Assembly (NCBI RefSeq): GCF_022539665.2
Contig: NC_081333.1
Location: 11,160,001 to 11,224,000 of the forward strand
From: Daphnia carinata
Taxonomy: Eukaryota
DNA length: 64,000 nt
Direction: 5' to 3'
Under the pieces are notes generated by a model. That model did not search any database. It saw only the letters and a program-made list of their open reading frames with translations, and had not been told where the DNA came from. How positions within the stretch are numbered: the first letter of the stretch is position 1; each line of letters starts with the position of its first letter. Positions 24,793 through 45,851 of the stretch are shown piece after piece. A program made the position numbers and the translations under genes.

Positions 24793-27700
24793 ATGACTCG
24801 TTACGCCAGAGCAAACGGTTCTAAATCATGCAATGCTCGTGTGAGTGCAGATCCGACGCCGTGGTCCGAAATGGTTTCCCCTAACAAGCGCGTAGCCGAA
24901 AGCATCGATGATGATGACGTTACAACTCCTAAAAGAGAGAAGAAAACTCCCAAGAAGACTCCCAAAGTTGTCAAGCTTGAACCTGGGACGCCAAAATCAC
25001 TTGCTGTTCTTAAGAGTCCAGTTCATGAAACTTCACCACTAGTAGCTACAACATCTGCTAAAAAGGTTTTGCGGAAAACTCCTGCAAAGCAGAAGGACAC
25101 AAGCTCTGTTAATACCCCTGGAAATGCCAGCACCCCACAAGGTATATTTGCCATTTTGTTTAATCACATTTTGTTTCTGGCAAGTGGTTATATTGTTTTT
25201 AATTTTTGTAGCAGGAAAGCTTTCACAACCGAGTCCAATTCAAACAAGGTCAGCACGTAAGAAGAAAGCTGAACTTAATGCAATACTGGGAACCCCAAAT
25301 AGTAAGGCAGTTTCTCCAACTAAAACTGTTAAGGGGACAAATTTAAACTCGAAGACTACAAGGAAAACCCAAAAAAGTACTCCTAAGGCTAAAGGAATGA
25401 AAAATAGCAATAAAGAAGACTTTAAACTTGAGCTTGATGATGAAATGGATTCTGACGATTTGGATTCTGATGACAACATGGGCCCTGATCATGATTCAGA
25501 TGACATTGATTCAGATGATGAATTTATAGGTATGAATAACATGAGAGCCAATACTTTTTATGGATTGAGTAATATTCTGTTTGGTTAAATGAGAAATAAT
25601 CCAATGTTATCTATTGGTAGATGAAGAGCATGCTGCAAAACTAAAAGCAGAACTTCAATCAATCATCAATAAACCAGTCAATAGCAAGTCAATTCTGAAG
25701 AGCACTAAAACACCAGTTAAGAAAACGAAAACGCCGGCGAAGGAATCCCATGCATCCAAAAAAAGCCCAATTAAGGCGGACACTCCAGCAAAGGAAACGC
25801 TTGAGCAGGGTAAAACTTCAGCGAAAGAAACGTCTACTCAGGTTAAAACTCCAGCCAAGGGAACGCCTATTCAAGTTAAAACTCCAGCAAAGGAAACATC
25901 TATTCAGTTTAAAACCCCAGCCAAGGAAACACCTATTCAGGTTAAAACCCCAGCCAAGGAATCACCTATTCAGGTTAAAACCCCAGCCAAAGAAACACCT
26001 ATTAAAGCTGAAAATTCGGCCAAAGAAACATCTGTTCAAGCTAAAACTCCAGCAAAGGAAACATCTATTCAGGCTAAAACTCCAGCCAAGGGAACCCCAT
26101 CTCAACCTAAAATTCTGGCGAAGGTAACGCCTACTCAAACTAAAACCCCAGCCAAGGAAAACCCTACGCCAGCTAAAACTCCAGCCAAGGAGACGCCTAC
26201 TCTAGCCAAAACTTCAGTGAAAGAGACCCCTACCCAAGCTAAAACCCCGGCGAAGGAAACGCTTACTGTAGCCAAAACTCCGGCCAAGATTCCTGCCCCG
26301 GTTACAACCCCAGTGAAGGAAATTCTTACTCCAGCAAAAACTCCAGCCAAGGAGGCGCCTACTGTAACCAAAACTTCAGCGAAAGAGACCCCTATCCAAG
26401 CGAAAACCCCGGCGAAGAAAACGCTTACTGTAGCCAATACTCCGGCCAAGACTCCAGCGAAGGAGATTCCTGCCCCGGCTACAACCCCAGTGAAGGAGAT
26501 TCCTACTCCAGCTAAAACCCCAGCGAAGGAGACGTCTGCTTCGGATAAAACTACGACCAAGGGGTCTCCTGCACAGGTGAAAACTCCCAAAAAGCCTCCG
26601 ACAACAACGCTCGCCACGGAAACCACTGCTCCAGTTAAAGCCCCGGCTAAAGGCAAAGAAACTTCGCCTCCAGTGAAGACTACAGCTAAGGCGAAAAACT
26701 CTGCGTCTCTGGCTGAAACTTCGGCAGCGGATGCCACATGTCAAGCAACAAGTGCAGTACAGGATAAAAAGGCTCCCGCGAAATCGTTGACTTTAGGGAA
26801 CTCAAAATTGCCAAACAATAGAGAACGAAAAGCTCTGAAGGCCAAGGAAAATCAAGCACCGAAAGAGTCAGGAGTTTCCGAAGTGGCCCATAAAGGATCA
26901 CCTAACGATTCACAAGCTGAAGATGCAAAAGCAGCCAAAGCTGCAAAAGCTCTAGCGAGGAAGTTAAGGTGGAAAAAAAAGAGACTTGAAGCTAGAGACA
27001 AGAAAATTGCTGCAATGCAGGCAGAGAATAGTGGAAATAGTGATTCACAAATAAATAATGGAACCTCATTGTCAGAAAAGGAGGCTAATGGCGCAGTTAA
27101 AAAAACTGTCGTACACGACATGATGAAATATCTTACTTCTAGACAAATAGGCTTAACGTCGTCAAATCAGTCTCCGAAAACTAAGACGAATGCCGCATTG
27201 GCCGAAGAAGAAAGATTTGTCGAAGTTCGCAAGAAGCTAGTAGCCAGTGGCAAAACGGAGGAAGAAATCGATCGAGATCTTCCGAGGGTAATTTTACCAT
27301 TTTTTCGCTTGTTTAATCGGTTGAATTAAAAATAAAATACTTTTTAGATAATGATGGCGATCCAGAAGCGCTTAGAGGGAACCCGATGCCTTAGGTGTCG
27401 TAAAAGGGGACACATGCAGAGAGACTGTCCGGTTTCTGAGCGACGACTGGCCAGCAAATGCTATAAATGCGGAGACACGACGCACACTATTAAAGAGTAA
27501 GGCACAATTTTGTCCTATGTTGAAGTCTTACTTAAATGTTGTTTATTTAGTTGTTCCATCAAGGAAGAGGTTTACACTTATGCAGAGTGTTTCATTTGCC
27601 GCCAGACTGGTCATCTTACTCGAAGTTGCCCTAGTAACCCAAAAGGGATTTACCCTCATGGTGGTGCGTGCTTTAAATGCGGTGACAATAGTCACTTGAG

Positions 27701-31905: not shown

Positions 31906-33400
31906 TCTTTAACGAGGTAATGAATATCAGTTTTGGCTTCAAATTTTTGTGTGAGCAATGTTCTAAACTTTTTCATTTATTCTATATGGCAATCCGTTTT
32001 ACCCAAAATAAAAATAAAAAATATTGGCCTTTTTTCTGTTTTACTGCTATTGCCATCTACCGGTCAAATTTCTAGTTAATTCTCTACATACACTGACCGA
32101 AAAAAATTTTTAAGCCCGACTAAGTAAGTCCGACTAAATAAGCCCGACTTTTCTCGGTCGGGCTTAAATTTTTTTTCTGAAAAACTGACACTCATCGGAA
32201 TTGGTTGAATATCACAAGGTATACTCAAAACTGAATGCTGATTCCGAATAAATTGCTATTTTTTATGAAGTTAATTGTTTTTGAAATACACCGAGTATTT
32301 GACGCAATGCTAGCGCGCCAGTACGCTACAGCGCTAGTGCGATGCTTATTTTGTCGGGCTTATTTTAAACCTGGCCATACAGTTTTTCCACTAGATGGCG
32401 CTGCAGATCAGCCATCATCAGATCAGCCCATCATCAGCCTCTAGCGTGTGCAATGGAACTATTGTTACTTTTTGTTGTCATGTGATTCTCATTGTTTACT
32501 TTGTTTTTACGTTGACAACGTGTATTTGAGTTTCCCTCGTCTGAACGGTATCGTTATTTCTGTTTTTTTTTTTGTTTTTACCTCCACCCCTATTATCGAT
32601 GTGCAAATATTGCACTGCTTCATTACCTAAACGAAATGTCAGCCGTTGCACTTGGGCTTAGAATGAGGTAATATTAACATACTTTTGGAAAACCAGGTCT
32701 CATGTTGTATCATTCTGGGTAAAGCCAGTGTTACCAGCAGAACTGTGCATGATATTTGGTAAAAATTGATGGTTTTTGTGTTTACAACCAAAAGCCAATT
32801 TTCAGGATTATTAAGATGATAATTTACTACTTTTACATTTGCAACATGTTAATCTTATTCTTCTTTATTAGTAAACATATCCAGTAGTGGAGTTGCAAGT
32901 AACAGATGTGTTCTGTTGTGTACTCTGCACATATCGTGGTTTGTTGCATGATTCTATTACTTTGTGAATCAATTGTAACTTATTTATGAATTGTTCATGC
33001 CTGAATATTAATGCAAAAACTACATGCATAGCAGTCATTTCCCAATGCAACAAAATATTCATAGTTTGTAGCAGAAGATTTTATCATAAGTAAACCTTGA
33101 AGACATTCTTGAAGATGTGCTATTTGCTAATATTCTGCAAGAATAGGATCACCCATTTACTTCTGTCTGGTAATAACCATATCTGTTCCACTATCCCCTT
33201 AATTCTGATGGCTACAAAATTAAAGGTATGGTTTTAATTATTTGCTTCGATTATTATGTGCGTGGTAGTGCTTTGAAATGGTATACAGGTCGTACCTGAA
33301 AACTGACCTTTAAGAACTTTGAAAGGCCATGTTATGTTCATTTACTATAGTTTACGTTTGAAACTACGCAGATCTTTTCTAACTTGTGAAGGAGAACATA

Positions 33401-33885
33401 GTTCATTTTTTAAATTTTCGAAATTTTAACTTTCAGTACAACTTCCGGTTTAAAAATGCCTAATAACTTACTATCTGTTGGTCTGAATTAAAAAAGCCAC
33501 ATTTTCGTAATCCTCGTAAAATTTGGGGTCGAATCCATGTGTCAGTAGGAAATACCCGAAAATCGTCAAAAATCGCAAATTTCCCTGAACTATAGTTCAG
33601 GAAAAATCGCGATTTTGGCCAAATTGGACTTTTCGCCAAAAACAGGTCAAAATAGGTCAGACACACCTTAAAGTTCACGAGGATCACGAAAATCATCTTC
33701 GTTTTTGGCCAAATTGGACTTTTCGCCAAAAACAGGTCAAAATAGGTCAGACACACCTTAAAGTTCACGAGGATCACGAAAATCATCTTCGTTTTGTTGT
33801 GGGCCCAGTATTTCTGGAGATATAGTCTACTTCTGGTCACTTCCGGTAATTTTTTTTTCAACTTCGCAAAAACTAAAAAATGAAC
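33401..33885. mobile_element. Nested MITE-like element with ~25-bp TIRs and internal ~90-bp tandem duplication (33613-33795)
   Basis: GTTCATTTTTTAAATTTTCGAAATT vs the reverse complement of AACTTCGCAAAAACTAAAAAATGAAC; two essentially identical TTTTGGCCAAATTGG...CATCTTCGTTT units. Confidence 0.6.
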
Positions 33886-34220
33886 ATTAATATGCCAAAC
33901 ATTTTAAGCATTTTGATCATATATGAAATGGTGTAGTGTCTTCTTTCGTGCTTGTTTTGTTATTGCACTGTTGGTTGATCGCGCGACTTGATATACTTAT
34001 GACACTACTTCGTTAACAGAGACTACTAGCATTATGTATCACGCTAATGGGAAGGTATACCTGGTAAATATAGATCATAGCATGAAGATATACCACATAC
34101 TATTATTATAACCTTATCATGCACGGCCATCTGATGTACAGTCAGGTTTAAAAATAAGCCCGACTTTTTCTTATTTTACGTTACGCTGTAGCGTATTAGC
34201 AAGCTACGGGAAGTTACGTA

Positions 34221-34291
34221 GTACTAATAGCTCTGAGGTAGAGCGTCTGAATACAGGAATCGAAAGTCAAGAGTTCGAGTCACGTATGGAT
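34221..34291 (+). other. tRNA-like motif T1 (distal type)
   Basis: TAGCTCTGAGGTAGAGC D-arm/A-box and GAGTTCGAGTC B-box-like; acceptor stem poor. Confidence 0.6.
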
Positions 34292-34488
34292 CCTATGTGC
34301 CAGAGGATTGGGTTACGGTTCCCACTGTAGACAATATTTCTTTGTCCAAAAAATGAATCACTCTATTGTATTTATAGGTGACATTCCGAGATGGAAATAT
34401 TAAATTGCGTTGGGACGCACAACAATATTATTACAAGTGCAAATAGATTTCCTTCAAAATACATGGAAAAATAGTTAACTAATTGATA

Positions 34489-34558
34489 AAACTCATGGCT
34501 TTATGGTTGAGTATCGGCGTCGCACGCCTGTAATCAAGGGTTCAATCCCGTAAGGAGT
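34489..34558 (+). other. tRNA-like motif T2 (proximal type)
   Basis: TGGCTTTATGGTTGAG, GGCGT-CGC-ACGCC stem, GGGTTCAATCCC T-arm/B-box, ACTC...GAGT ends. Confidence 0.62.
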
Positions 34559-34914
34559 AAAAATGAAATTAAATAAATATATATACGTAACTCAAAATGT
34601 CAAATTGTATGTACAATGCATGTATACTATTCAATATCATTAATGCACATGGAGTTGTAAAATCTCCATGAAGTGAGATTAAAGTGCATCATTCCATAAA
34701 CAATCCATCGTACAACAACGAAATGTTCGCTCATGATTGGGTACAGGAAAAAATTGAAAATACGAGTACGCCAATAAAATGACATTACGACATAATTAAG
34801 GAAATGTTCACAAAAGTTAAAAATGCAGAGCAACACCACGACAGAACAAAAAGACAAGATCTGTAAAGCTTTTTTTAAAATTTGTATTGAAAATACTCTG
34901 CACAATTTAAAGAC

Positions 34915-35270
34915 TTGCAACTTTGAAAGGGCAAAATAGCCGATTCCAAAGTTGCTGTCAACTAAGGTAGGGGGAGACACTACCTCAGTTGACTCACCGG
35001 GGAGATTACCCGGTGCGTGGCTAAGAGAAGCCGGAAGAAGAACCAAGGTTTCGGACAAGCTTTTACGTGAGCGATTAACTGTTAATTCGGATTTTTGGGT
35101 AGCCCCATAGCCCTCCAATGATATCATCGGACCATGAGGACCCCCACGTCCCCTTTCCATACAGCGCACTCACAACCTTTGCTGCTGATCACAGTAGGGG
35201 CATGACCCCCTAATTATTACAAATCTAGGGGAAACGGGGCCACAGAAAAGAAGGGAGCCCAGATATACAC
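34915..35270 (+). ncRNA. Conserved multi-hairpin structured element, diverged copy A (strand uncertain)
   Basis: Successive stems GCAACTTTG/CAAAGTTGC, GTCAAC..AGGTAG/CTACCT..GTTGAC, CACCGGG/CCCGGTG, GGCT/AGCC, TAGGGG/CCCCTA; homologous to 39278-39650. Confidence 0.6.
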
Positions 35271-35289
35271 TTTAATTTTTAAACACATA

Positions 35290-36290
35290 AATGTTTTACG
35301 TTCTGGATGAATCAGCAATTAACCGTGAAGTGAAAGTATCGTTCTTCAAAAATCTAGCATCTCTTTTCGTCTTCTATTTTTGAAACGGAAATATAACGGC
35401 TGGACATCTTTTACGGTTAGCTGCAAAATTTCATCATGAAATCTGGAAGGAAAAAGAAAATTCAGATCAAGGTAAAACATGACCACAGAAAAGATGAGAG
35501 AACCTATTAATTGTGCTTCACTTTGAATGAAACAAATACCGTAACATGGGAGATCTGGACGATATTTCCAATGGGAACTTAATTATGCACTTCACTTTGA
35601 ACATACCATGGGTGACGGTTGGACCAAAATATCGATATCCTTTTAACAATACTGATAGTTTTCAATTAAAAATATGTCAACCTCCACCAAAGTATAGGCT
35701 TGTCACTTGGGAGTTTCCTTTCTGTAATTTACAATATTTTATTTAATAAACTCATGATCTCTAAACCATCAATTAATTACCAAATTGTTTAAGAAGACAT
35801 GTTTGGCAGAATGACAGTCATTGATAGAAAATCAATAATCTTTGCAGGCCTCTTCGATTGCTGAAAAGGCAAAACACTGTTCAAGAAAGAGGACAAGATC
35901 CAATTACTGCAACTGAATATTATCAGAGCAACTCCAACCAAATATTCCAAAATGTTTTCAACTTCAGGCAACAATTCAGGGAAGTTCTCTAAAGAAAACA
36001 AGAACATTCCCTTCGTTATGCAGGGAATTTTGTTGTAATTATAACAAACGATCAAAGTTGTCTCACAGCCGGGATGGGAAAATGGAAAAGGTTTGTCCAT
36101 AGATAACCTATCAACCAGTACTGTCACATCACTGCCAATACAGAGAAGGAAATTCAAAAGTTATTTAAAATTCAATAGATATTTTACCATTAATGATACT
36201 GCAACACATAGCTGTAGCAGATGCTTATTCTATGAAAAATTTATCCTATTGTAGAATAGGCCTTGCCTAAAATGTAACGCGAATGCCATC
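35290..36290. pseudogene. Decayed ORF remnant adjoining structured copy A
   Basis: Interrupted frames. Minus-strand FPELLPEVENI matches FPKLLPEVESI in the 37.7-kb arm and AF*KLLPGI at ~41.8 kb. Coding strand not resolved. Confidence 0.45.
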
Positions 36291-36521
36291 ACCTAAAATT
36301 TATGGCAATCCGTTTTACACAAAAAAAAAAAAAAATTTCGCAAAAAAAAAAAAAAAAAAATCACACTTTTTTCTTATTTTCCGACACGTAGCCATCTACC
36401 GCTCAGACTCGTTATTACTGGCGTAGGCAATTTCAGTCCATTGGATGCCAATATGCCATTCGCAGTTAGTTCAGTAGCGTGGATGGAGAGAATAACGCGT
36501 GGCTGGAGGAACAATTGAAAA

Positions 36522-37260
36522 ATGGATAAGATAATACAACAAAAGGATGGTAAGTATAAACATTATTATATTGGTTTTCAATTATTAATTATTGTTTATT
36601 AGATCAAATTATGGACCTGCAGGCTCAATTATTGCAACAGCACAAAATATTAGATAACAGCAAAGATAAGGATGGTAAGGCCTAATACATAATGATTCTA
36701 TTTATTTGCTTTTATTCATTTGTGTTTTGTAGCTCAAAGTTTGAGTCTACAAGCTCAGCTAGGGGAAAGGAATAAATTGAAACGGAACAGTTTCCAAACA
36801 GTGAAGGAGGTTTTTCCAAACTCAAACCTAACTGAACATGAGGATGAATTGGCATTAGGCGAACACAGTCAGGTACCTAAACTTTTCAAATAAGAATTCA
36901 AAATAAGTATAGAATTTTAACAAACAATTATTTATTGTTTAGTTATTCAGTCTACCACCTGACAGTGTGTTAAATTTAAATTCTGTTAGTGCTGCACTAA
37001 AAGAATCATTAGTAATAAGTCCATGCAGCGAAGAAAGTGAACAATTGTGGGACCATATTTGGGCTGAAAATGGGTGTGGTACGGAAACCAAGAAATAGCA
37101 CAAGTTCAACATGAAACATGGATTAGGTACTTTTTGGTTTTTTGTCTATTGAAAAAGTATTTTTAATGCTATTATTTTGCATTCACAGAATTTTAGCGGG
37201 GGATCAAGTAAAGTCTGGAAGTGTTACAGGATGGAAGAGTGAGCCTACAGTTGAAAAACA
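36522..37260 (+). pseudogene. Spliced ORF in left arm (MDKIIQQKD|DQIMDLQAQLL...), in-frame TAG near 37096
   Basis: Four in-phase GT-AG introns; coiled-coil-like N-terminus; no family recognised. Confidence 0.55.
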
Positions 37261-37991
37261 TTGAAAGTGCATTACCATTAAGGTATGAGGTAAAGTAATA
37301 GAGTATGCAAATTGTCTAATGAGAAGTACCATCTTGTGTGAATGAATCCTGTGTAACAGCAATCCTTTATAGTTCTGTCACAGCTAGAAGCCTCAAATAA
37401 TTCTGCTTCTCTTGCTAAAGAACAACTTGTCCTTTACGTTCAGAGTGTTGGTGAAGCTGGTTACTTAAATGGCCCTAAAGATGTTTCATTTCGTTGGCAT
37501 TGCAGCGATGAACATCATACATGGACTTTTTAGGTATGAAAGGAATTTTCTTGAAAATTTTTTAAATTTATGACAAAGCATTTCTCCTGCTTTTTGCCAA
37601 CCATGTCTAATCTAAAAAAAAAATTTATCCAATAGGAAAGGATTTTCAGCATACTGGGAACACAACTATCAACAATGCAACATTCTAGGGGTGCTATTTT
37701 ATCATTCAAGAGCCTTATACAATGATTATCATCTGCAATTTGTATGGCCTTTCCCAAGCTTCTGCCAGAAGTTGAATCTATAAGTCATGTAAGTCACATG
37801 AGCAACAATTGAGATGCTTAATGGTGTTGTTTTTCTTTTCTAGGCATAGGTTAATAGTAACATTGGATCTGAAAAGATTCTTGGTTGGGGCAAGACACTG
37901 AATAAATTGTAATGATTGAATGGATGACATGACATTTCTATACTTAATTTGGATTCCCGAGACGGTATTTGATATTAAAAAAATTGAAGTG

Positions 37992-38364
37992 CATATCTGG
38001 GCTCCCTTCCTTTCCGTAGCCCCGTTTCCCCTTGACTCGTAATAAGCCCGTAGGGGGTCATGCCCCTACTGTACGGTATATATAAAAATAACATATACCG
38101 AGGTTTGGAGGGCTCTGGCCGGAAAGGGGACGTGGGGTGCCGCTTAGTCCGATGATGTGTTCACGGAGGGCGATGTGGCTACCCACAAATCCGAACTAAA
38201 GGTTAATCGCTCCTGTAAAAATGTTCCAAATCTTCAGCTCTTCTTCCGGCTTCTCTTAGCCAATCACCGGGTAATCTCCCCGGTGGGTCAACAAGGCAGT
38301 GTCTCCCCCTGCCTGGGTTGACGGCAACTTTTGAAAGGGCTATTGTGCCTTTTTAAAGTTGCAA
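37992..38364 (-). ncRNA. Structured element, left-arm copy B
   Basis: Near-identical reverse complement of 39278-39650. Confidence 0.6.
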
Positions 38365-38563
38365 AAATAATTGTAATGTGCAGAGAATTGTCAATAAAAT
38401 TGTTTTTATAAAATTTTTTTTTGCAAAATTTGTTTCTTTCATTGTCTGTGACACACATTACAATTATCAACTTTTTTTTATTTTGCTTTGCTTTATTTGT
38501 TTTTGTCACCTTTGATGGTAAGCATTGTTTCCATTGGTTTATCGTTTATCTGTAAGCATTCTA

Positions 38564-38634
38564 TTATTATCCAGGGATCGAACCCTGTATGTTCGGCATG
38601 CCGCGCCGATGCTCTACCAATGAGCCATGAATCA
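38564..38634 (-). other. tRNA-like motif T3 (proximal type)
   Basis: TGGCTCATTGGTAGAGC, TCGGC-GCGGCAT-GCCGA, CAGGGTTCGATCCCTG; acceptor stem weak. Confidence 0.68.
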
Positions 38635-38747
38635 TATGATGTCAAGATGGCTTTTTTTCTAGTCACTTGTGGACTTGCATTTACACTTAGAATAAAACTG
38701 AAATGCAATTCTCTCTTCTACATTTTTTCTACTTCATTTTAATACAT

Positions 38748-38815
38748 CTACTCAGGTTTGAACCCAGGGTAACAGATATCGAAGCTAAAGGCTCTACCAC
38801 AGAGCTATGAACCGT
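38748..38815 (-). other. tRNA-like motif T4 (distal type)
   Basis: TAGCTCTGTGGTAGAGC ... GGGTTCAAACC; same 5' block as T1. Confidence 0.62.
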
Positions 38816-38910
38816 ATGAAAGCAATAGAAAGATAAACATATAGTTGTGAAAGACTGCATAAACATCCTAGACGATAACATATGATATGCGATAATAACA
38901 TATTTAGATA

Positions 38911-38980
38911 TATCTCGTGGCTCAATGTTAGAGCTTCGGCGTAGCACGCTGAATGTCTGGGGATCGGTTCCCATACGAGT
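38911..38980 (+). other. tRNA-like motif T5 (proximal type)
   Basis: CTCG-TGGCTCAATGTTAGAGC, TCGGCGT-AGC-ACGCTGA, GGGATCGGTTCCC, ends CGAG. Confidence 0.58.
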
Positions 38981-39277
38981 AAAACAAAATACAAAATTAC
39001 TTCAAAAAATATCCAGGTATTACGCGTTGTTCCTTGAATCTAAGTTGAAGAATTCAAATAATGTAATAAATAATAACTGAATACTTACAGATACACGATA
39101 AACCAATGGAAACAATGCTTACCATCAAAGGTGACAAAAACAAATAAAGCAAAACAAAATTAAAAAAAAGTTGATAAATGTAATGTGTGAACACAGACAA
39201 TGAAGGAAACAAATTTTGCAAAAAAAAAAAAAAAAAAAAAAAATTTATTGACAATTCTCTGCACATTACAATTATTT

Positions 39278-39650
39278 TTGCAACTTTAAAAAGGCACAAT
39301 AGCCCTTTCAAAAGTTGCCGTCAACCCAGGCAGGGGGAGACACTGCCTTGTTGACCCACCGGGGAGATTACCCGGTGATTGGCTAAGAGAAGCCGGAAGA
39401 AGAGCTGAAGATTTGGAACATTTTTACAGGAGCGATTAACCTTTAGTTCGGATTTGTGGGTAGCCACATCGCCCTCCGTGAACACATCATCGGACTAAGC
39501 GGCACCCCACGTCCCCTTTCCGGCCAGAGCCCTCCAAACCTCGGTATATGTTATTTTTATATATACCGTACAGTAGGGGCATGACCCCCTACGGGCTTAT
39601 TACGAGTCAAGGGGAAACGGGGCTTCAGAAAAGAAGGGAGCCCAGATATG
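39278..39650 (+). ncRNA. Structured element, right-arm copy B', ending in ATG (39648-50)
   Basis: Same stems as copy A with a compensatory change (AGGCAG/CTGCCT vs AGGTAG/CTACCT) and an extra CGGTATAT/ATATACCG hairpin. Confidence 0.62.
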
Positions 39651-40389
39651 CACTTCAATTTTTTTAATATCAAATACCGTCTGGGGAATCCGAATTAAGT
39701 ATAGAAATGTCATGTCATCCATCCAATCAATACAATTTATTCCGTGTCTTGCCCCAACCAAGAATCTTTTCAGATCCAATGTTACTATTAACCTATATTG
39801 AGAAAAGAAAAACAACACCATTAAACATATCAACTGTTGATCATGTAACTTACATGACTCATAGATTCAACTTCTGGTGGAAGCTTGGGGAAGGACATAC
39901 AAATTGCAGATTAACATCATTGTATAAGGGTCTTGAATGATGAACTAGCACCTGTACAATGTTGCATTGTTGATAGTTGTGTTCCCAGTACATGAAAATC
40001 CTTTCCTTTTGGATAAAATTTTTTTTGGTAGATTAGACCTGGTTGGCAAAAAGGAGGAGAAATTCTTCGTCATAAATTCAAAATTATTTGAAGAAAATTC
40101 CTTTCATACCTAAAGAGTCCATGTATGATGTTCATCTCTGCAATGGCAGCAAAATTAAAACATCTTTAGGGCCATTTAAGTACCCAGTTTCCCCAACACT
40201 CTGAACGTAAAGGACAAGTTGTTCTTTAGACAGAGAAGCAGAATTATTTGAGGTTTCTAGCTGTGACAGAACTATAAAGGATTGCTGTTGTACTGGATTT
40301 ATTAACACAAGATGGTACTTCTCATTAGACAATGTGCATACTCTATTACTTTACCTCATACCTTAATGGTAATGCACTCTGTGTTTTTT

Positions 40390-41120
40390 CATCTGTAGGC
40401 TGACTCTTCCATCCTGTAACACTTCCAAACTTGATTTGATCCCCCATTAAATTCTGTGAATGCAAAATAATAGCATTAAAAATACTTTTTCAATAGACAT
40501 CAAACCGAAAAGTACCTAATCCATGTTTCATGTTGAACTTGTGCCATATCTTGGTTTCCGTACCACACCCATTTTCGGCCCAAATACGGTCCCACAATTG
40601 TTCACTTCCTTCACTGCATGGGCTTATTACTAACGATTCTTTTTGTGCAGCACTAACAGAATTTAAATTTAACACACTGTCAGGTGGTAGACTGAATAAC
40701 TAAACAATAAATAATTGTTTGTTAAAATTCTATACTTATTTTGAATTCTTATTTGAAAAGTTTAGGTACCTGACTGTGTTCGCCTAATGCCAATTCATCC
40801 TCATGTTCAGTTAGGTTTGAGTTTGGAAAAACCTCCTTCACTGTTTGGAAACTGTTCCGTTCCAATTTATTCCTTTCCCCTAGCTGAGCTTGTAGACTCA
40901 AACTTTGAGCTACAAAACACAAATGAATAAAAGCAAATAAATAGAATCATTATGTATTAGGCCTTACCATCCTTAGCTTTGCTGTTATCTAATATTTTGT
41001 GCTGTTGCAATAATTGAGCCTGCAGGTCCATAATTTGATCTAATAAACAATAATTAATAATTCAAAACAAATATAATAATGTTTATACTTACCATCCTTT
41101 TGTTGTATTATCTTATCCAT
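40390..41120 (-). CDS. Spliced ORF in right arm, unknown product (possibly pseudogene)
   Basis: Mirror of the 36522 ORF; has TGG (ETKIWHKF) where the left arm has TAG. Confidence 0.45.
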
Positions 41121-41368
41121 TTTTCAATTGTTCCTCCAGCCACGCGTTATTCTCCATGCACGCTACTGAACTAACTGCGAATAGCATCCAATGGACTGAA
41201 ATTGCCTACGCCAGTAATAATGAGTCTGAGCGGTAGATGGCTACGTGTCGGAAAAAAAGAAAAAAGTGCGATTTTTTATTTTTTTTCCGCCATTTTTTTT
41301 TTTTTTTTTTTTACGTAAAACGGATTGCCATATGAAACGGATTGCCATACAAAAAAAAAAAAAAAAAA

Positions 41369-41558
41369 TAGCCACGTCGCCCTCCGTGAACACATCATCG
41401 GACTAAGCGGACCCCCACGTCCCCTTTCCGGCCAGAGCCCTCCAAACTTCGGTATATGTTGTTTTTATATATACCGTACAGTAGGGGCATGACCCCCTAC
41501 GGGCTTATTACGAGTCAAGGGGAAACGGGGCTACGGAAAGGAAGGGAGCCCAGATATG
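41369..41558 (+). ncRNA. 5'-truncated structured element, copy C, ending in ATG (41556-58)
   Basis: Near-identical to the 3' half of copies B/B'; preceded by a poly-A run. Confidence 0.58.
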
Positions 41559-41559
41559 C

Positions 41560-43260
41560 ACTTCAATTTTTACATAATTAATACCGTAATACGCGGGAAT
41601 ACACAGGCGACTGATGGAGGGAAATTCAATTCCGTACTTCAAATTATTATAACTTTTCGTCATCACATCCCAACCAGAAACCTTCGCAGGTTCACTATTG
41701 CTATTAATCTAAATTAAGAAAATAAAACATAGATAAGCATAAGACGTTCTTATTGATATCGCTTACATGGTACATAAATTCATCATCTGCCATATTCCTG
41801 TAGATTCCTGGCAGGAGCTTCTAAAAGGCTATGCAGTTGCAAATGATCACCATAGCCAAAACTTGAATACGAAAGTTTGGAAGAACCCTTCGTGTTGGAC
41901 ACAGAGATCTTCTATGGGCTTTCCGGTTGGACGTTCCATGCACCATAAAAAACAGATAGGTTACAAAGTTGGTTGTTTTGATCACTAAACGTTAAGATAA
42001 ACAATGTACCTGGTATCGGCAGTCTTGACAACAATTTCCATTATAACATCATATCACCTGATTTTATGGAAAAAGAATTTCGTAGGCGACAGTTCAGAAT
42101 AGAAATGGTTGCACTCAAATCTATTGACAGGTGAGGATTAAGGAATGTCGCCTTAGGGAGTGCAAACCGCGATTTTCAAAATTATTAAATGCTTGTTAGC
42201 CATTGAAAGATTGCTGGCTGACGCAGACAATAGTTTGGGACATGATTAATGAACTGCTTCGTGGATAAAGCTCGTTTTTTTTAGTCCTCTCCAGGATGGC
42301 ATGAATTCCAGCATGTTCTACACATGTATCAGCACTTAGCGATACACCAATTAAAACAATTAAAAAATTTAAAATAGTTCCACCTTTTAATGTTTTGGAC
42401 TCCATGATTCATCTTCGTTGCAATTGTGAAGGCAAGACAACTGACCTATGGTGATTTATTCATCGCACTTGCCATAACCGTTTTCCCAATGTATCAGCTT
42501 TTCCGCCAACAGTAGTTTACTAATACAACATTGACGATTAAAACTAGAAAACTAAACAAACTCAGCAGAAAAGCATTACCAGGGAGTAACATCTTGCATG
42601 TTGACGAAGAATCCTCGGTTTATCATGTACATGGCAGAATATCCACATTGCCTAGATGGCGCAATCCTTTGCGTAATCACACAAATAGTAACTAAAGCAT
42701 ATTGAATTGAAACAAAATTTAAATGAAGTTTTACCCAACAGCCAGCTGCACCTCTGAATTCCAAAACTATGTCTACACATTCATATCAAGCTTTTCCAGC
42801 ATGTCTCACCTTTGGCATTTGTTTAAATCATTCCTTCAAAAATTTTTAATCAATGTAAATAAAGTAAACAATTGATATTTATGTGACGTCAGAGTACCAT
42901 TTAGCTGTCAAGCATTCCATACAAGATAGGCATTTTGAAGAATCAGTGGCAGCAATCAAGTGCTACAATTTGAATATGGGCTAGGTGTTATAGTCACTGA
43001 GGGCTCTCAATCCCTAAACTGAACCTTGCTCACTGATGTGACAATCTATAAAAGGATTTAAATCTTAATTAATGAGACATGCAGGATACTGTATAAAATT
43101 ATAGTAAAGATGGTACCAAATGCTGAGTTACTAGAAATTTTGCCTGGGAAATCTCCAACTGACCATGTGAAACATAAGTCAGCTGTACTGCATTTGCAAA
43201 TCCAGTGTTCAAGTAACCATGTACAATCCATGTCTGAAGGAATGAATGAGAAAATTAAAC
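41560..43260. pseudogene. Decayed gene remnant between copy C and the 43345 TIR
   Basis: Fragmented frames; 41670-41860 is weakly homologous to 39735-39920 (SWQELLKGYAVANDHH vs FWQKLGK/AIQIADDNH). Confidence 0.4.
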
Positions 43261-44169
43261 AGGAATCTACCGCTAGATGGCCATAGCAGTAAAAAAGAAA
43301 ATAAGGGCAAAATTTTTTTTTTGGGGGGTAAAACGGATTGCCATAGGTTATAGCCTTCCCCCAAATCAAGACCTTGCAAAGGTCAAATGTGAGCCCACAG
43401 AAAGACTTTTCAGTTTTGCCAAGATAATAAAAGGGCAACTACATCAATGATAAAAACTTGATTATAAATGAAAAATAAATTCAGCTAAAAAGCTTAGCGG
43501 GTAAAACTGTTCCGCCTTATTTTTAAAGAAAGTTTATAGCAGACTGCACGAGTCTCTAAATCACCCACCAAACACAAACCCTTAGAGTTACCATTACTAT
43601 TGCACGAACGGACCGTTACCTGTTGTGCTGGATATTTTTCTTCGTTATTATTGTACAATTCTTACAGCATATTTTGGTTAACATTGCCATGGATATGATT
43701 TGTAATTATGTGACATTCTTGTTGTTTTTTTTTTTTTTGCATTTGCACTTTATTGTGTAGTATCTGATTTAATAAACGAAAAAAGACGGGAACATCAATG
43801 ATTTACGAATGAACAACCACCAATCAAAAGATGCCTGCCTTAAGGTTAAATTCACTTGGCATTTAAGGAGTTCCGAAGTTCCAAGATGGCAATTTTGAAG
43901 CCATTCTTTCAGCAATCAGCTGTGAAACTGCGCCGGAGATCGAAAACGGCGCGATAGTGTAGAATGGTGTAAATCAATTCAGAACCTTTGGCATGGCCAG
44001 CTTGGTTCCGTCTTGTTACAGTTTTGCCGATTAGTCACATTCATTATTTTGTAATGCTCTAAAAATGGTCATGAGTGAGGTTGCAGTACCCTTTAACTCG
44101 CTTTCTTACAACGAACCATTCGGGCTATTTGATTTTTAAATCTGTACTAACCCATTTGATATTCAACGA

Positions 44170-44308: not shown

Positions 44309-45851
44309 TATGGCAATCCGTTTTACCCAAAATAAAAATAAAAAATATTGGCCTTTTTCTGTTTTATTGCTATCGCCATCTAACGGTCACGTTTCTAGTT
44401 AATTCTCTACATACACTGACCGAAAAAAATTTTAAGCCCTACTAAATAAACCCGACTAAATAAGCCCGACTTTCTGTTTTTTACGGTTAATTTAAAAAGT
44501 AGAAGCCTAATATAAAAATATACCCCATTTTCGTGATCAGCGATCAATTTCGAATCGGAATAATGTATTTTTAATGAAATCTAGGATTTGAAGAAAAGTG
44601 GAAAAGTGGGAAGGCCTTCTTACTATTTCAATTTTGGCAAAATTTTCGATTTCGCTTTAAATACATGGTTTCGATGCAGAATTGAACGGACATCACGAAT
44701 ATGAGGGTTGTTTTCTCGTGGGCTTCATAGTTTTTGAATAAAACGTAAAAAGCGGTAAAAGCTGGGTTAAAAAATAAGCCCGGGCTGATATTGTCGGGCT
44801 TAAAATTTTTCCTTTTAAAAAATAATAGCATTAAATCTAGATATCTATAGATGATTCTGATTCAAAATTAACCAAGGAACACGAAAATGGAATTTTTTTT
44901 TACGTAGAGCTTATAGTTGTGAAGTAATCTAAAATCTAAAATTAGTGTGTGTGCGAATCGAACCATTACTAGCGTGCCAGTACGCTACAGCGTTAGCCTG
45001 ACACATCAAAGTTCTTTGATTATTCAAAAACCATAAATTCTACGTAAAAACAAATTTCATTTTCGTGTTCCTTGTTAAATTTTGAATGAGAATTATCTAT
45101 AGATATCTAGATTTAATGCTTCCATTAGATAATCAATGCAAACCATCACTAGATAACTATATATAATGATTCTGATTCAAAATTTATATCGAATTCCAAG
45201 AGATGTAATTTTTGGCCGATTATGGCAAAAGTGGTAAGGCTATAGCGTTTCCACTTTTCCATTGTTGGCTAAATTTTAAATTTCGCTTAAAATACATGAT
45301 CTCGATTCAGAATGGACTGCTTATCACGGAAATCAAATTTATTTTCTAATGGGCCTTGTGGTTTTTTAATTAAACTTTAAAAACTAAACAATTAGAAAAG
45401 TCGGGCTTATTTAGCCGGGCTTATTTAGTCGGGCTTAAACAAATTTTTTACAAAAACTGACACTCATCGGAATAATGTAATATAATACACTGCAACAACC
45501 AGCAACGAGCTTTTATTATTCAAACACATAATTTATACCTTAAACACACCATTCTCATTATTATTAGAATTTAATACATCCTTTTGCTGCAGTACAAAGT
45601 GGACTTCAAGTTAATAGTAATAATAAATAAATTAAGTAAATAGAATAGAACAAAATAAAATAACGTTTAATAATATGTTGATTAAATAAAGTTATTAGTT
45701 TAAAATTTTTTATTTTTATATGGCTAGAATATGTAAAGTTGTCCTTAGAGAAAAAACTATAAATCTGATCGGTAGATGGCGATAGCAGTAATACAAAATA
45801 AAGGCCAATTTTTTTTTTTTTGGGGGGGGGGGGGTAGAATGGATGGCTATA
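44309..45851. mobile_element. Non-autonomous 1.5-kb member of the same TIR family, internally palindromic
   Basis: Left ~165 bp nearly identical to 31985-32150; diverged right TIR ...GGTAGAATGGATGGCTATA; TAAGCCCGAC clusters at 44433-70 and inverted at 45400-37; internal inverted repeat ~44827-44915 / ~45033-45120. Confidence 0.85.

Follow-up and report, generated by a model that had tools for sequence, protein, structure and literature searches.

A module of about 380 nt, present in three full copies (A, B and B′) and one half copy (C) when the window, i.e. the whole 64,000-nt stretch of Daphnia carinata DNA analysed here, was compared with itself, is a real, unclassified and strand-biased structured unit of an IS3EU-like Daphnia transposon. 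The initial annotation had proposed a novel structured RNA from two copies, A and B′; copy B, half copy C and the transposon context are additional. A conserved, strand-specific and unclassified fold is what stood of that proposal, and the free-standing gene, strong covariation, the plus strand and the GAGA loops did not: instead of a non-coding RNA gene of its own, the module is a constant component inside the DNA transposons of an IS3EU-like family. Its copies are as follows.

34917–35283, favoured strand minus: module copy A (self-comparison of the window, folding, strand evidence)
37978–38363, plus strand: module copy B, inverted, sense to the upstream gene (self-comparison)
39280–39662, minus strand: module copy B′ (self-comparison, folding)
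41369–41570, minus strand: half copy C, corresponding to the 5′ half in the favoured reading, 95.6% identical to B′

The sequences and stems first annotated (hairpins H1–H4, the TAGGGG/CCCCTA hairpin, the long-range pairing) were all found at their positions, and the description of a GC-rich island in AT-rich DNA was borne out, with 50% GC in the module versus 32–33% in the flanks. The length difference between A and B′, which had been put down to an extra hairpin, is mainly one replaced hairpin (39542–39568), together with a 4-nt insert. The window contains short introns and UVSSA and PIAS-type genes, and at 25614–27329 a 571-aa low-complexity, internally repeated reading frame without Pfam match.

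The host elements have TATGG..CCATA ends, of the IS3EU type. Seven ends of the form TAYGG..CCRTA, reading TATGGCAATCCG or its reverse complement CGGATTGCCATA, were found in the window. At the ends, about 18 conserved bases are followed by an A-tract, and the arms of element B are inverted along their whole length.

36301–41332, no strand assigned: element B, a 5-kb near-palindrome bounded by TATGGCAATCCG ends, its 2.27-kb arms 93.9% identical
31985–32030, plus strand: left end of the IS3EU type, probably belonging to element A as its other end (a pairing that we infer)
43345, minus strand: element end that goes with the degenerate subfamily C gene

According to the available parts of two reports (PMC10045372, PMC12730594), IS3EU elements have TA..TA ends, which in rust fungi read TAYGG..CCRTA and come with 6-bp duplications; fungal IS3EU families have terminal inverted repeats longer than 30 bp, and the TET+ families carry oppositely oriented transposase and alpha-kinase genes. 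The elements of the window share with IS3EU/GingerRoot the TAYGG..CCRTA ends, a gene pointing inward from an end, and a 45-aa link to a D. magna protein that resembles HTH/rva_4 integrase-type proteins. They differ in that no transposase and no alpha-kinase domain was found by Pfam in 18 read-through frames, and no matching 6-mers, as expected for a 6-bp target site duplication, in the flanks of three left and four right ends. The missing duplication is a weak negative, because the cluster is nested and rearranged. No reverse transcriptase was detected in the host element. Membership is thus likely but incomplete, and we regard the hosts as non-autonomous, degenerate IS3EU-like elements. IS3EU has been recorded from D. 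pulex and, in trace amounts, from D. magna. The superfamily is described as largely unexplored in structure and function in the accessible part of PMC11934779, and neither a structured internal module nor a tRNA-like array figures in the portions of the IS3EU accounts consulted (PMC10045372, PMC12730594, PMC11934779, PMC6839031).

One layout is common to A, B, B′ and C: an element end, then an inward-pointing gene, then the module. The module thereby occupies the same position in three subfamilies (A, B and C), just downstream of an intron-containing element gene, and no intact element end lies within 1.5 kb of it. B and B′ form the two arms of a single 5-kb near-palindrome. Element B looks like a head-to-head fusion of two elements with convergent genes, read-through of which would give a 2.2-kb hairpin RNA. 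As to the surroundings, a MITE-like element at 44309–45850 shares its IS3EU-type left end with 31974–32151 (92% over 179 bp) and has inverted GCCCGACT subterminal repeats. At 32320–34200 an inverted TACGCTACAGCG-containing repeat pair surrounds another repeat as well as a gene remnant, and 96 bp are tandemly duplicated at 33610–33795. The genes of the elements are listed below.

35300–36290, minus strand: degenerate gene of the subfamily A element, directed into the module and truncated by element B at 36300
36433–37960, plus strand: left-arm gene of B, with TCAGTC at 36433, which we take to be an initiator-like motif, an ATG at 36522 and short introns
39700–41120, minus strand: right-arm gene, one exon of which gives 45 aa at 58% to D. 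magna XP_045026876 (E 1.9e-4)
41600–43345, minus strand: degenerate gene of subfamily C, its last exon weakly homologous to B

Exons 2–4 of the left-arm gene match multicopy 143-aa models of D. carinata at 79–92%, and the gene beside B′ matches multicopy D. carinata gene models at 82–92% per exon; spliced RefSeq-type models of the upstream gene are present at several D. carinata loci. A short spliced frame (36522–37125 and 41120–40517) matches a 143-aa D. carinata model at several loci, with a possible coiled-coil N-terminus by eye and, in the left arm, a stop near its end. Judged from sequence, it may be a real small element protein. The other half of XP_045026876 resembles HTH/rva_4 integrase-type proteins, its nearest Atlas clusters being HTH and rva_4 integrase-core. 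Protein searches returned no longer forms of XP_045026876 or XP_057374245, which is weak evidence, and neither a Pfam nor a homolog match for the subfamily A gene fragment. One protein match, P0003, was rejected as a repeat artefact.

The module is better conserved than what surrounds it. Between the arms of element B, differing sites were 3 out of 366 in the module, 84 out of 1500 in the gene and 14 out of 170 in the inner flank (Fisher p about 1e-5 for module versus gene, and 2e-5 for module versus inner flank). Identity between C and B′ falls from 95.6% in the module half to 61% in the next 200 nt, and between A and B′ from 78.6% in the module to 52–57% in the flanks, random pairs averaging 51%. 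Across subfamilies A, B and C, gene remnants decay and the module does not. Such a pattern could result from selection in cis, but also from recent exchange between subfamilies.

Three public DNA-type contig runs carry the module, two of them from a second organism. In both of these, 10 of the 30 bins covering 34400–36300 were represented, mostly on the module, and the summed depth went up to 9300 on the module versus at most 17–22 in covered bins off it. Depths of thousands versus tens suggest many copies, depth not being the same as copy number. Contigs of the second organism showed a sharp conservation border near 39661 with many different flanks behind it, one contig per run joined a tRNA-like unit to the module, and a 136-nt contig identical to B′ was found at high depth. 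The element appears to be multicopy and recently amplified in Daphnia.

Folding of the module was compared to that of shuffled sequences. The structural features, given for copy A, are the following.

34917–35032, minus strand: four-hairpin array H1–H4, at the 3′ end of the favoured reading (RNA z −8.2 minus, −5.9 plus)
34917–34955: hairpin H1
34957–34993: hairpin H2
34995–35015: hairpin H3
35019–35032: hairpin H4
35089–35260, minus strand: 5′ and central domain, where long-range G/C-run helices compete and z is near 0 in A
35114–35131: central hairpin, closed by helix 35106–35113/35129–35136
35195–35212: hairpin TAGGGG/CCCCTA

For whole copies, z was −3.25 (plus) and −5.04 (minus) with A, and −5.06 (plus) and −4.48 (minus) with B′. 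The signal is concentrated in H1–H4, which alone gave RNA z values of −5.6 to −8.2, the remaining two thirds of the module giving merely +0.07 to −3.7. With DNA parameters H1–H4 scored as strongly (−6.5 to −7.8), and DNA energies showed little strand preference. A count of GC-containing stems over 344 windows, each of 370 nt, gave three with the top score of 3; two of these are B and B′. Although the overall identity of the copies is 78.6%, A and B do not differ in the loops of H2–H4. The long-range pairing of CCCCTTTCC with GGAAA(C)GGGG, as annotated, forms 9 Watson-Crick pairs with one bulge.

An Rfam search at the gathering threshold gave no match in the window, in line with the initial comparison by eye to 7SK, SRP, RNase P/MRP, telomerase RNA and ribozymes, although divergent arthropod family members could escape covariance models. 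At E ≤ 10 over 34000–42000, the sole match on a copy was a weak mir-84 (34955–34995, 17.8 bits, E 3.1).

The stems had been called covarying, which was overstated. A single pair among the 41 of H1–H4 had changed on both sides, a score equalled by 170 of 500 shuffles, and the three rows compared, two of them nearly identical, amount to only two independent full sequences. This pair belongs to AGGTAG/CTACCT versus AGGCAG/CTGCCT, the one genuine two-sided change among the three examples put forward. The stem GCAACTTT/AAAGTTGC is invariant between copies and therefore uninformative on covariation, and TGGG/CCCA versus GTGG/CCAC is a one-base register slip, broken by a second-organism variant at 39465.

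The minus strand is probably the folded one. An A-C opposition on the plus strand corresponds to a G-U wobble on the minus strand. Out of 25 common variants in the second-organism contigs, 7 in local stems were G>A opposite C and none was C>T opposite G (p 0.016, a value weakened if one site confounded by an indel is dropped and three sites in one hairpin are merged). All 4 non-Watson-Crick oppositions in the local hairpins of copy A are A-C and none is G-T; those of B′ show 1–2 A-C and 3 G-T on the plus strand (H5, H8), base composition alone predicting 55–58% A-C. The three middle helices of A add 6 A-C and no G-T, a count biased by the choice of these helices while reading the minus strand. 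The three-lineage consensus energy of the middle part was −44.9 kcal/mol on the minus strand versus −27.9 on the plus strand. Against the minus strand, the second-organism change at 39603 fits the plus strand, and the whole-copy z of B′ is better there. The preference for G-T over A-C holds for single-stranded DNA too.

The G-U evidence had been called mixed; overall it leans to the minus strand (7 versus 0 stem variants). Both the wobble asymmetry and the positionally conserved poly(A) signal described below speak against the plus strand, and the minus strand of the module is sense to the upstream element gene. Since the minus strand is favoured, the loops would read UCUC instead of GAGA: the supposed purine-rich protein-binding sites become UAAUCUC, UCUCUU and UGUCUCCCC. 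GAGA-factor sites were rejected, the loops being without GAGAG.

Poly(A)-signal-like hexamers follow the module in its three full copies.

34883–34888, minus strand: AATACA of copy A, about 29 nt beyond H1 on its 3′ side, with a GU/U-rich stretch after it
38393, plus strand: AATAAA of copy B, aligned in position with the AATACA of A
39249–39244, minus strand: AATAAA of copy B′, aligned in position with the AATACA of A

The hexamer lies 28–31 nt past the last hairpin in A, B and B′, before U/GU-rich sequence. Such hexamers are frequent in this AT-rich DNA (6 on the sense strand of B, two of them shortly upstream of the module), so that the one after the module is supportive only. On the side away from the gene, degenerate tRNA-like units follow the module in A, B and B′.

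34225–34295, plus strand: degenerate tRNA-like A/B-box unit
34492–34560, plus strand: degenerate tRNA-like A/B-box unit, sharing a contig with the module in both second-organism runs (joint 34516–35185)
38565–38635, minus strand: tRNA-like unit (Rfam tRNA 28.1 bits, gathering score 29)
38745–38815, minus strand: tRNA-like unit
38913–38983, plus strand: tRNA-like unit with cloverleaf fold (z −2.5)

These five units (34225–34560 and 38565–38983) form tandem pairs about 180–270 bp apart, all aimed at the module. Judging by sequence, the element appears to include them, and they could be TFIIIC barriers. Dada transposons are not known to have terminal inverted repeats. They were considered and rejected, the units being internal and degenerate and the element having inverted ends (PMC3706591, in its available part). 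Just 5′ of the favoured module reading, a loose ATTCCC..CGGTAT motif with a variable spacer is seen at 39665–39700 and 41570–41600; it is also present in loose contig ends and is possibly one more hairpin.

We tentatively favour, at a little short of an even chance, that the module is the structured, protein-binding 3′ end of the element's own spliced transcript, acting in cis. The position, the conservation, the hairpins and the wobble bias on which this reading is based are observed; to be counted against it, covariation is not above shuffles and the identity of C and B′ is explicable by recombination or gene conversion. RNA polymerase II would transcribe from the initiator-like site through the module to the poly(A)-like signal, and a protein would bind the invariant pyrimidine-rich loops of the folded minus strand, whose UCUU/CUCU presumably resemble PTB/hnRNP I sites. 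The folded nascent RNA would then act at its own locus and favour copying of the element that made it, either by tethering the transposase, or by ensuring a clean end of transcription, so that convergent genes would not produce double-stranded RNA. A non-autonomous DNA transposon retains whatever it requires in cis, and in these elements the gene remnants decay and the module is kept; action in cis is suggested on that ground.

Four other explanations have to be weighed against a structured transcript end. The module might be a functionless old structured fragment, homogenised by recombination or gene conversion among many copies. This would account for there being a single compensatory change, for a middle domain barely above shuffles in stability, for the 95.6% identity of C and B′ beside a 61% flank, which resembles recent exchange, and for the 136-nt contig, which points to recent amplification. 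We nevertheless hold it to be unlikely: the H2–H4 loops are invariant despite 78.6% overall identity, stem changes are skewed to one wobble type, conservation ends sharply on both sides, and a second organism keeps the module but shows no match to its flanks. Quite unlikely, in our estimate, is that it folds as single-stranded DNA. If IS3EU moved by an IS3-like copy-out, the mechanism of bacterial IS911, one strand would be displaced and need priming, and hairpins with pyrimidine-rich loops on it would be the priming or recognition signal in cis. Against this, the module is located exactly between the gene end and the poly(A)-like signal, the DNA energies have little strand preference, and copy-out is not mentioned for IS3EU in the parts of the IS3EU literature examined. 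Retention in non-autonomous copies would, on the other hand, need no further assumption, the strand asymmetry fits equally well, H1–H4 are stable with DNA parameters too, and IS3EU transposases are related to IS3/IS481 (PMC10045372, in the part available).

We give an equally low probability to a separate small RNA gene of the polymerase III or the snRNA type, perhaps read from the plus strand, acting in trans as, for example, a silencing decoy or scaffold. The size of about 380 nt, the sharp border around 39661, beyond which other contigs have diverse flanks, the five A/B-box units aimed at the plus reading, and a loose PSE-like/TATA-like pair readable upstream of either strand would all suit such a gene. 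In the minus reading, however, the ATTC-to-TATA spacing is 20–24 nt and varies between copies, compared to about 31 nt in the corresponding Drosophila promoter (PMC1761439, available part); a PSE+TATA promoter was rejected on this spacing, by an insect rule from which the Daphnia PSE consensus may differ. T-runs of 5–7 lie between the tRNA-like units and the module, others of 4–5 inside it on both strands, and a trans-acting cargo would be weakly selected in non-autonomous DNA transposons. Least probable by far is a new class of self-cleaving ribozyme, or a nuclease-resistant fold, cutting or capping the element transcript. The module does lie at the transcript end, and its competing long-range helices could make a pseudoknot, but the possible pseudoknot helix is broken at 2–3 of 10 pairs in B′ and the second organism, Rfam gave no ribozyme match, and neither strand of A or B′ contains a hammerhead, twister or pistol core pattern. 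A triple helix, formed by the C-rich tracts, would be unlikely at neutral pH.

Several known systems resemble the module in part. ENE triple-helix elements are stability structures of transposon RNAs, with a U-rich internal loop between flanking stems. Like them, the module is a structured element near a transposon transcript 3′ end, close to a poly(A) site; in contrast, its MFE and consensus folds are without a U-rich internal loop, its pyrimidine tracts are rich in C, and introns interrupt the gene upstream of it. Self-cleaving ribozymes and retroelement 3′ structures, such as the HDV-like ribozyme of R2 and the hammerheads of Penelope, are likewise cis-acting folds retained in non-autonomous copies, whereas the host of the module has terminal inverted repeats and introns, and no ribozyme family matched. 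With 7SK, SRP, RNase P/MRP and telomerase RNA the module shares a length of 300–400 nt, several stems and a high GC content. It differs from them in being multicopy inside a transposon, without Rfam match to them at E ≤ 10; neither a GAUC pair nor an MRP/P CR-I motif was found in the module, and the TTAGG template hexamer is present on the plus strand of B′ only. The omegaRNAs of Fanzor/TnpB are also structured sequences 3′ of the element gene, on the same strand, in eukaryotic DNA transposons. As described in the available part of a review (PMC13565253), in which IS3EU is not mentioned, an omegaRNA reaches the element end, has a 14–15-nt variable guide and needs a RuvC nuclease. The module does not have the arrangement of an omegaRNA scaffold, being internal and more than 1.5 kb from the element ends, and Pfam and protein searches found no Fanzor RuvC/zinc-finger gene beside it. 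By analogy, the module's action would come closest to that of cis-acting 3′ structures in mobile-element RNAs, and its placement recalls a Fanzor omegaRNA.

Searches for relatives gave no match in viral, prokaryote genome, or plasmid and phage scans, and a search of the window with model R1 recovered just the three training copies. The metagenome pattern scan yielded no relative beyond one locus (L001, 1–5869), rejected as a chance match in a phage-like gene without blast similarity; its contig carries phage-like structural genes. No account of the module was found among titles and abstract openings of the literature, though Repbase or the D. magna repeat library (PMC8594854) may contain the element; the module motifs had no match in 12 of the 32 text supplements of PMC8594854.

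The wider proposal, that IS3EU elements of Daphnia depend in cis on a folded single strand, either a 380-nt RNA or displaced DNA, which recruits the transposase or primes copying, is speculative and in our view doubtful. Were it true, a DDE transposon family would need a folded nucleic-acid module, as retroelements and OMEGA systems do, by way of an unrelated fold. Non-autonomous cut-and-paste transposons are expected to retain their ends only; in the present elements a strand-specific fold from the interior is better preserved than the gene that accompanies it, both across subfamilies and in a second organism. If located in the transcript tail, such a fold would be an unusual and so far unclassified part for this kind of transposon. 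If functional, it would suggest that IS3EU transposition, or the evasion of silencing, involves an RNA or single-stranded-DNA step not recognised before.
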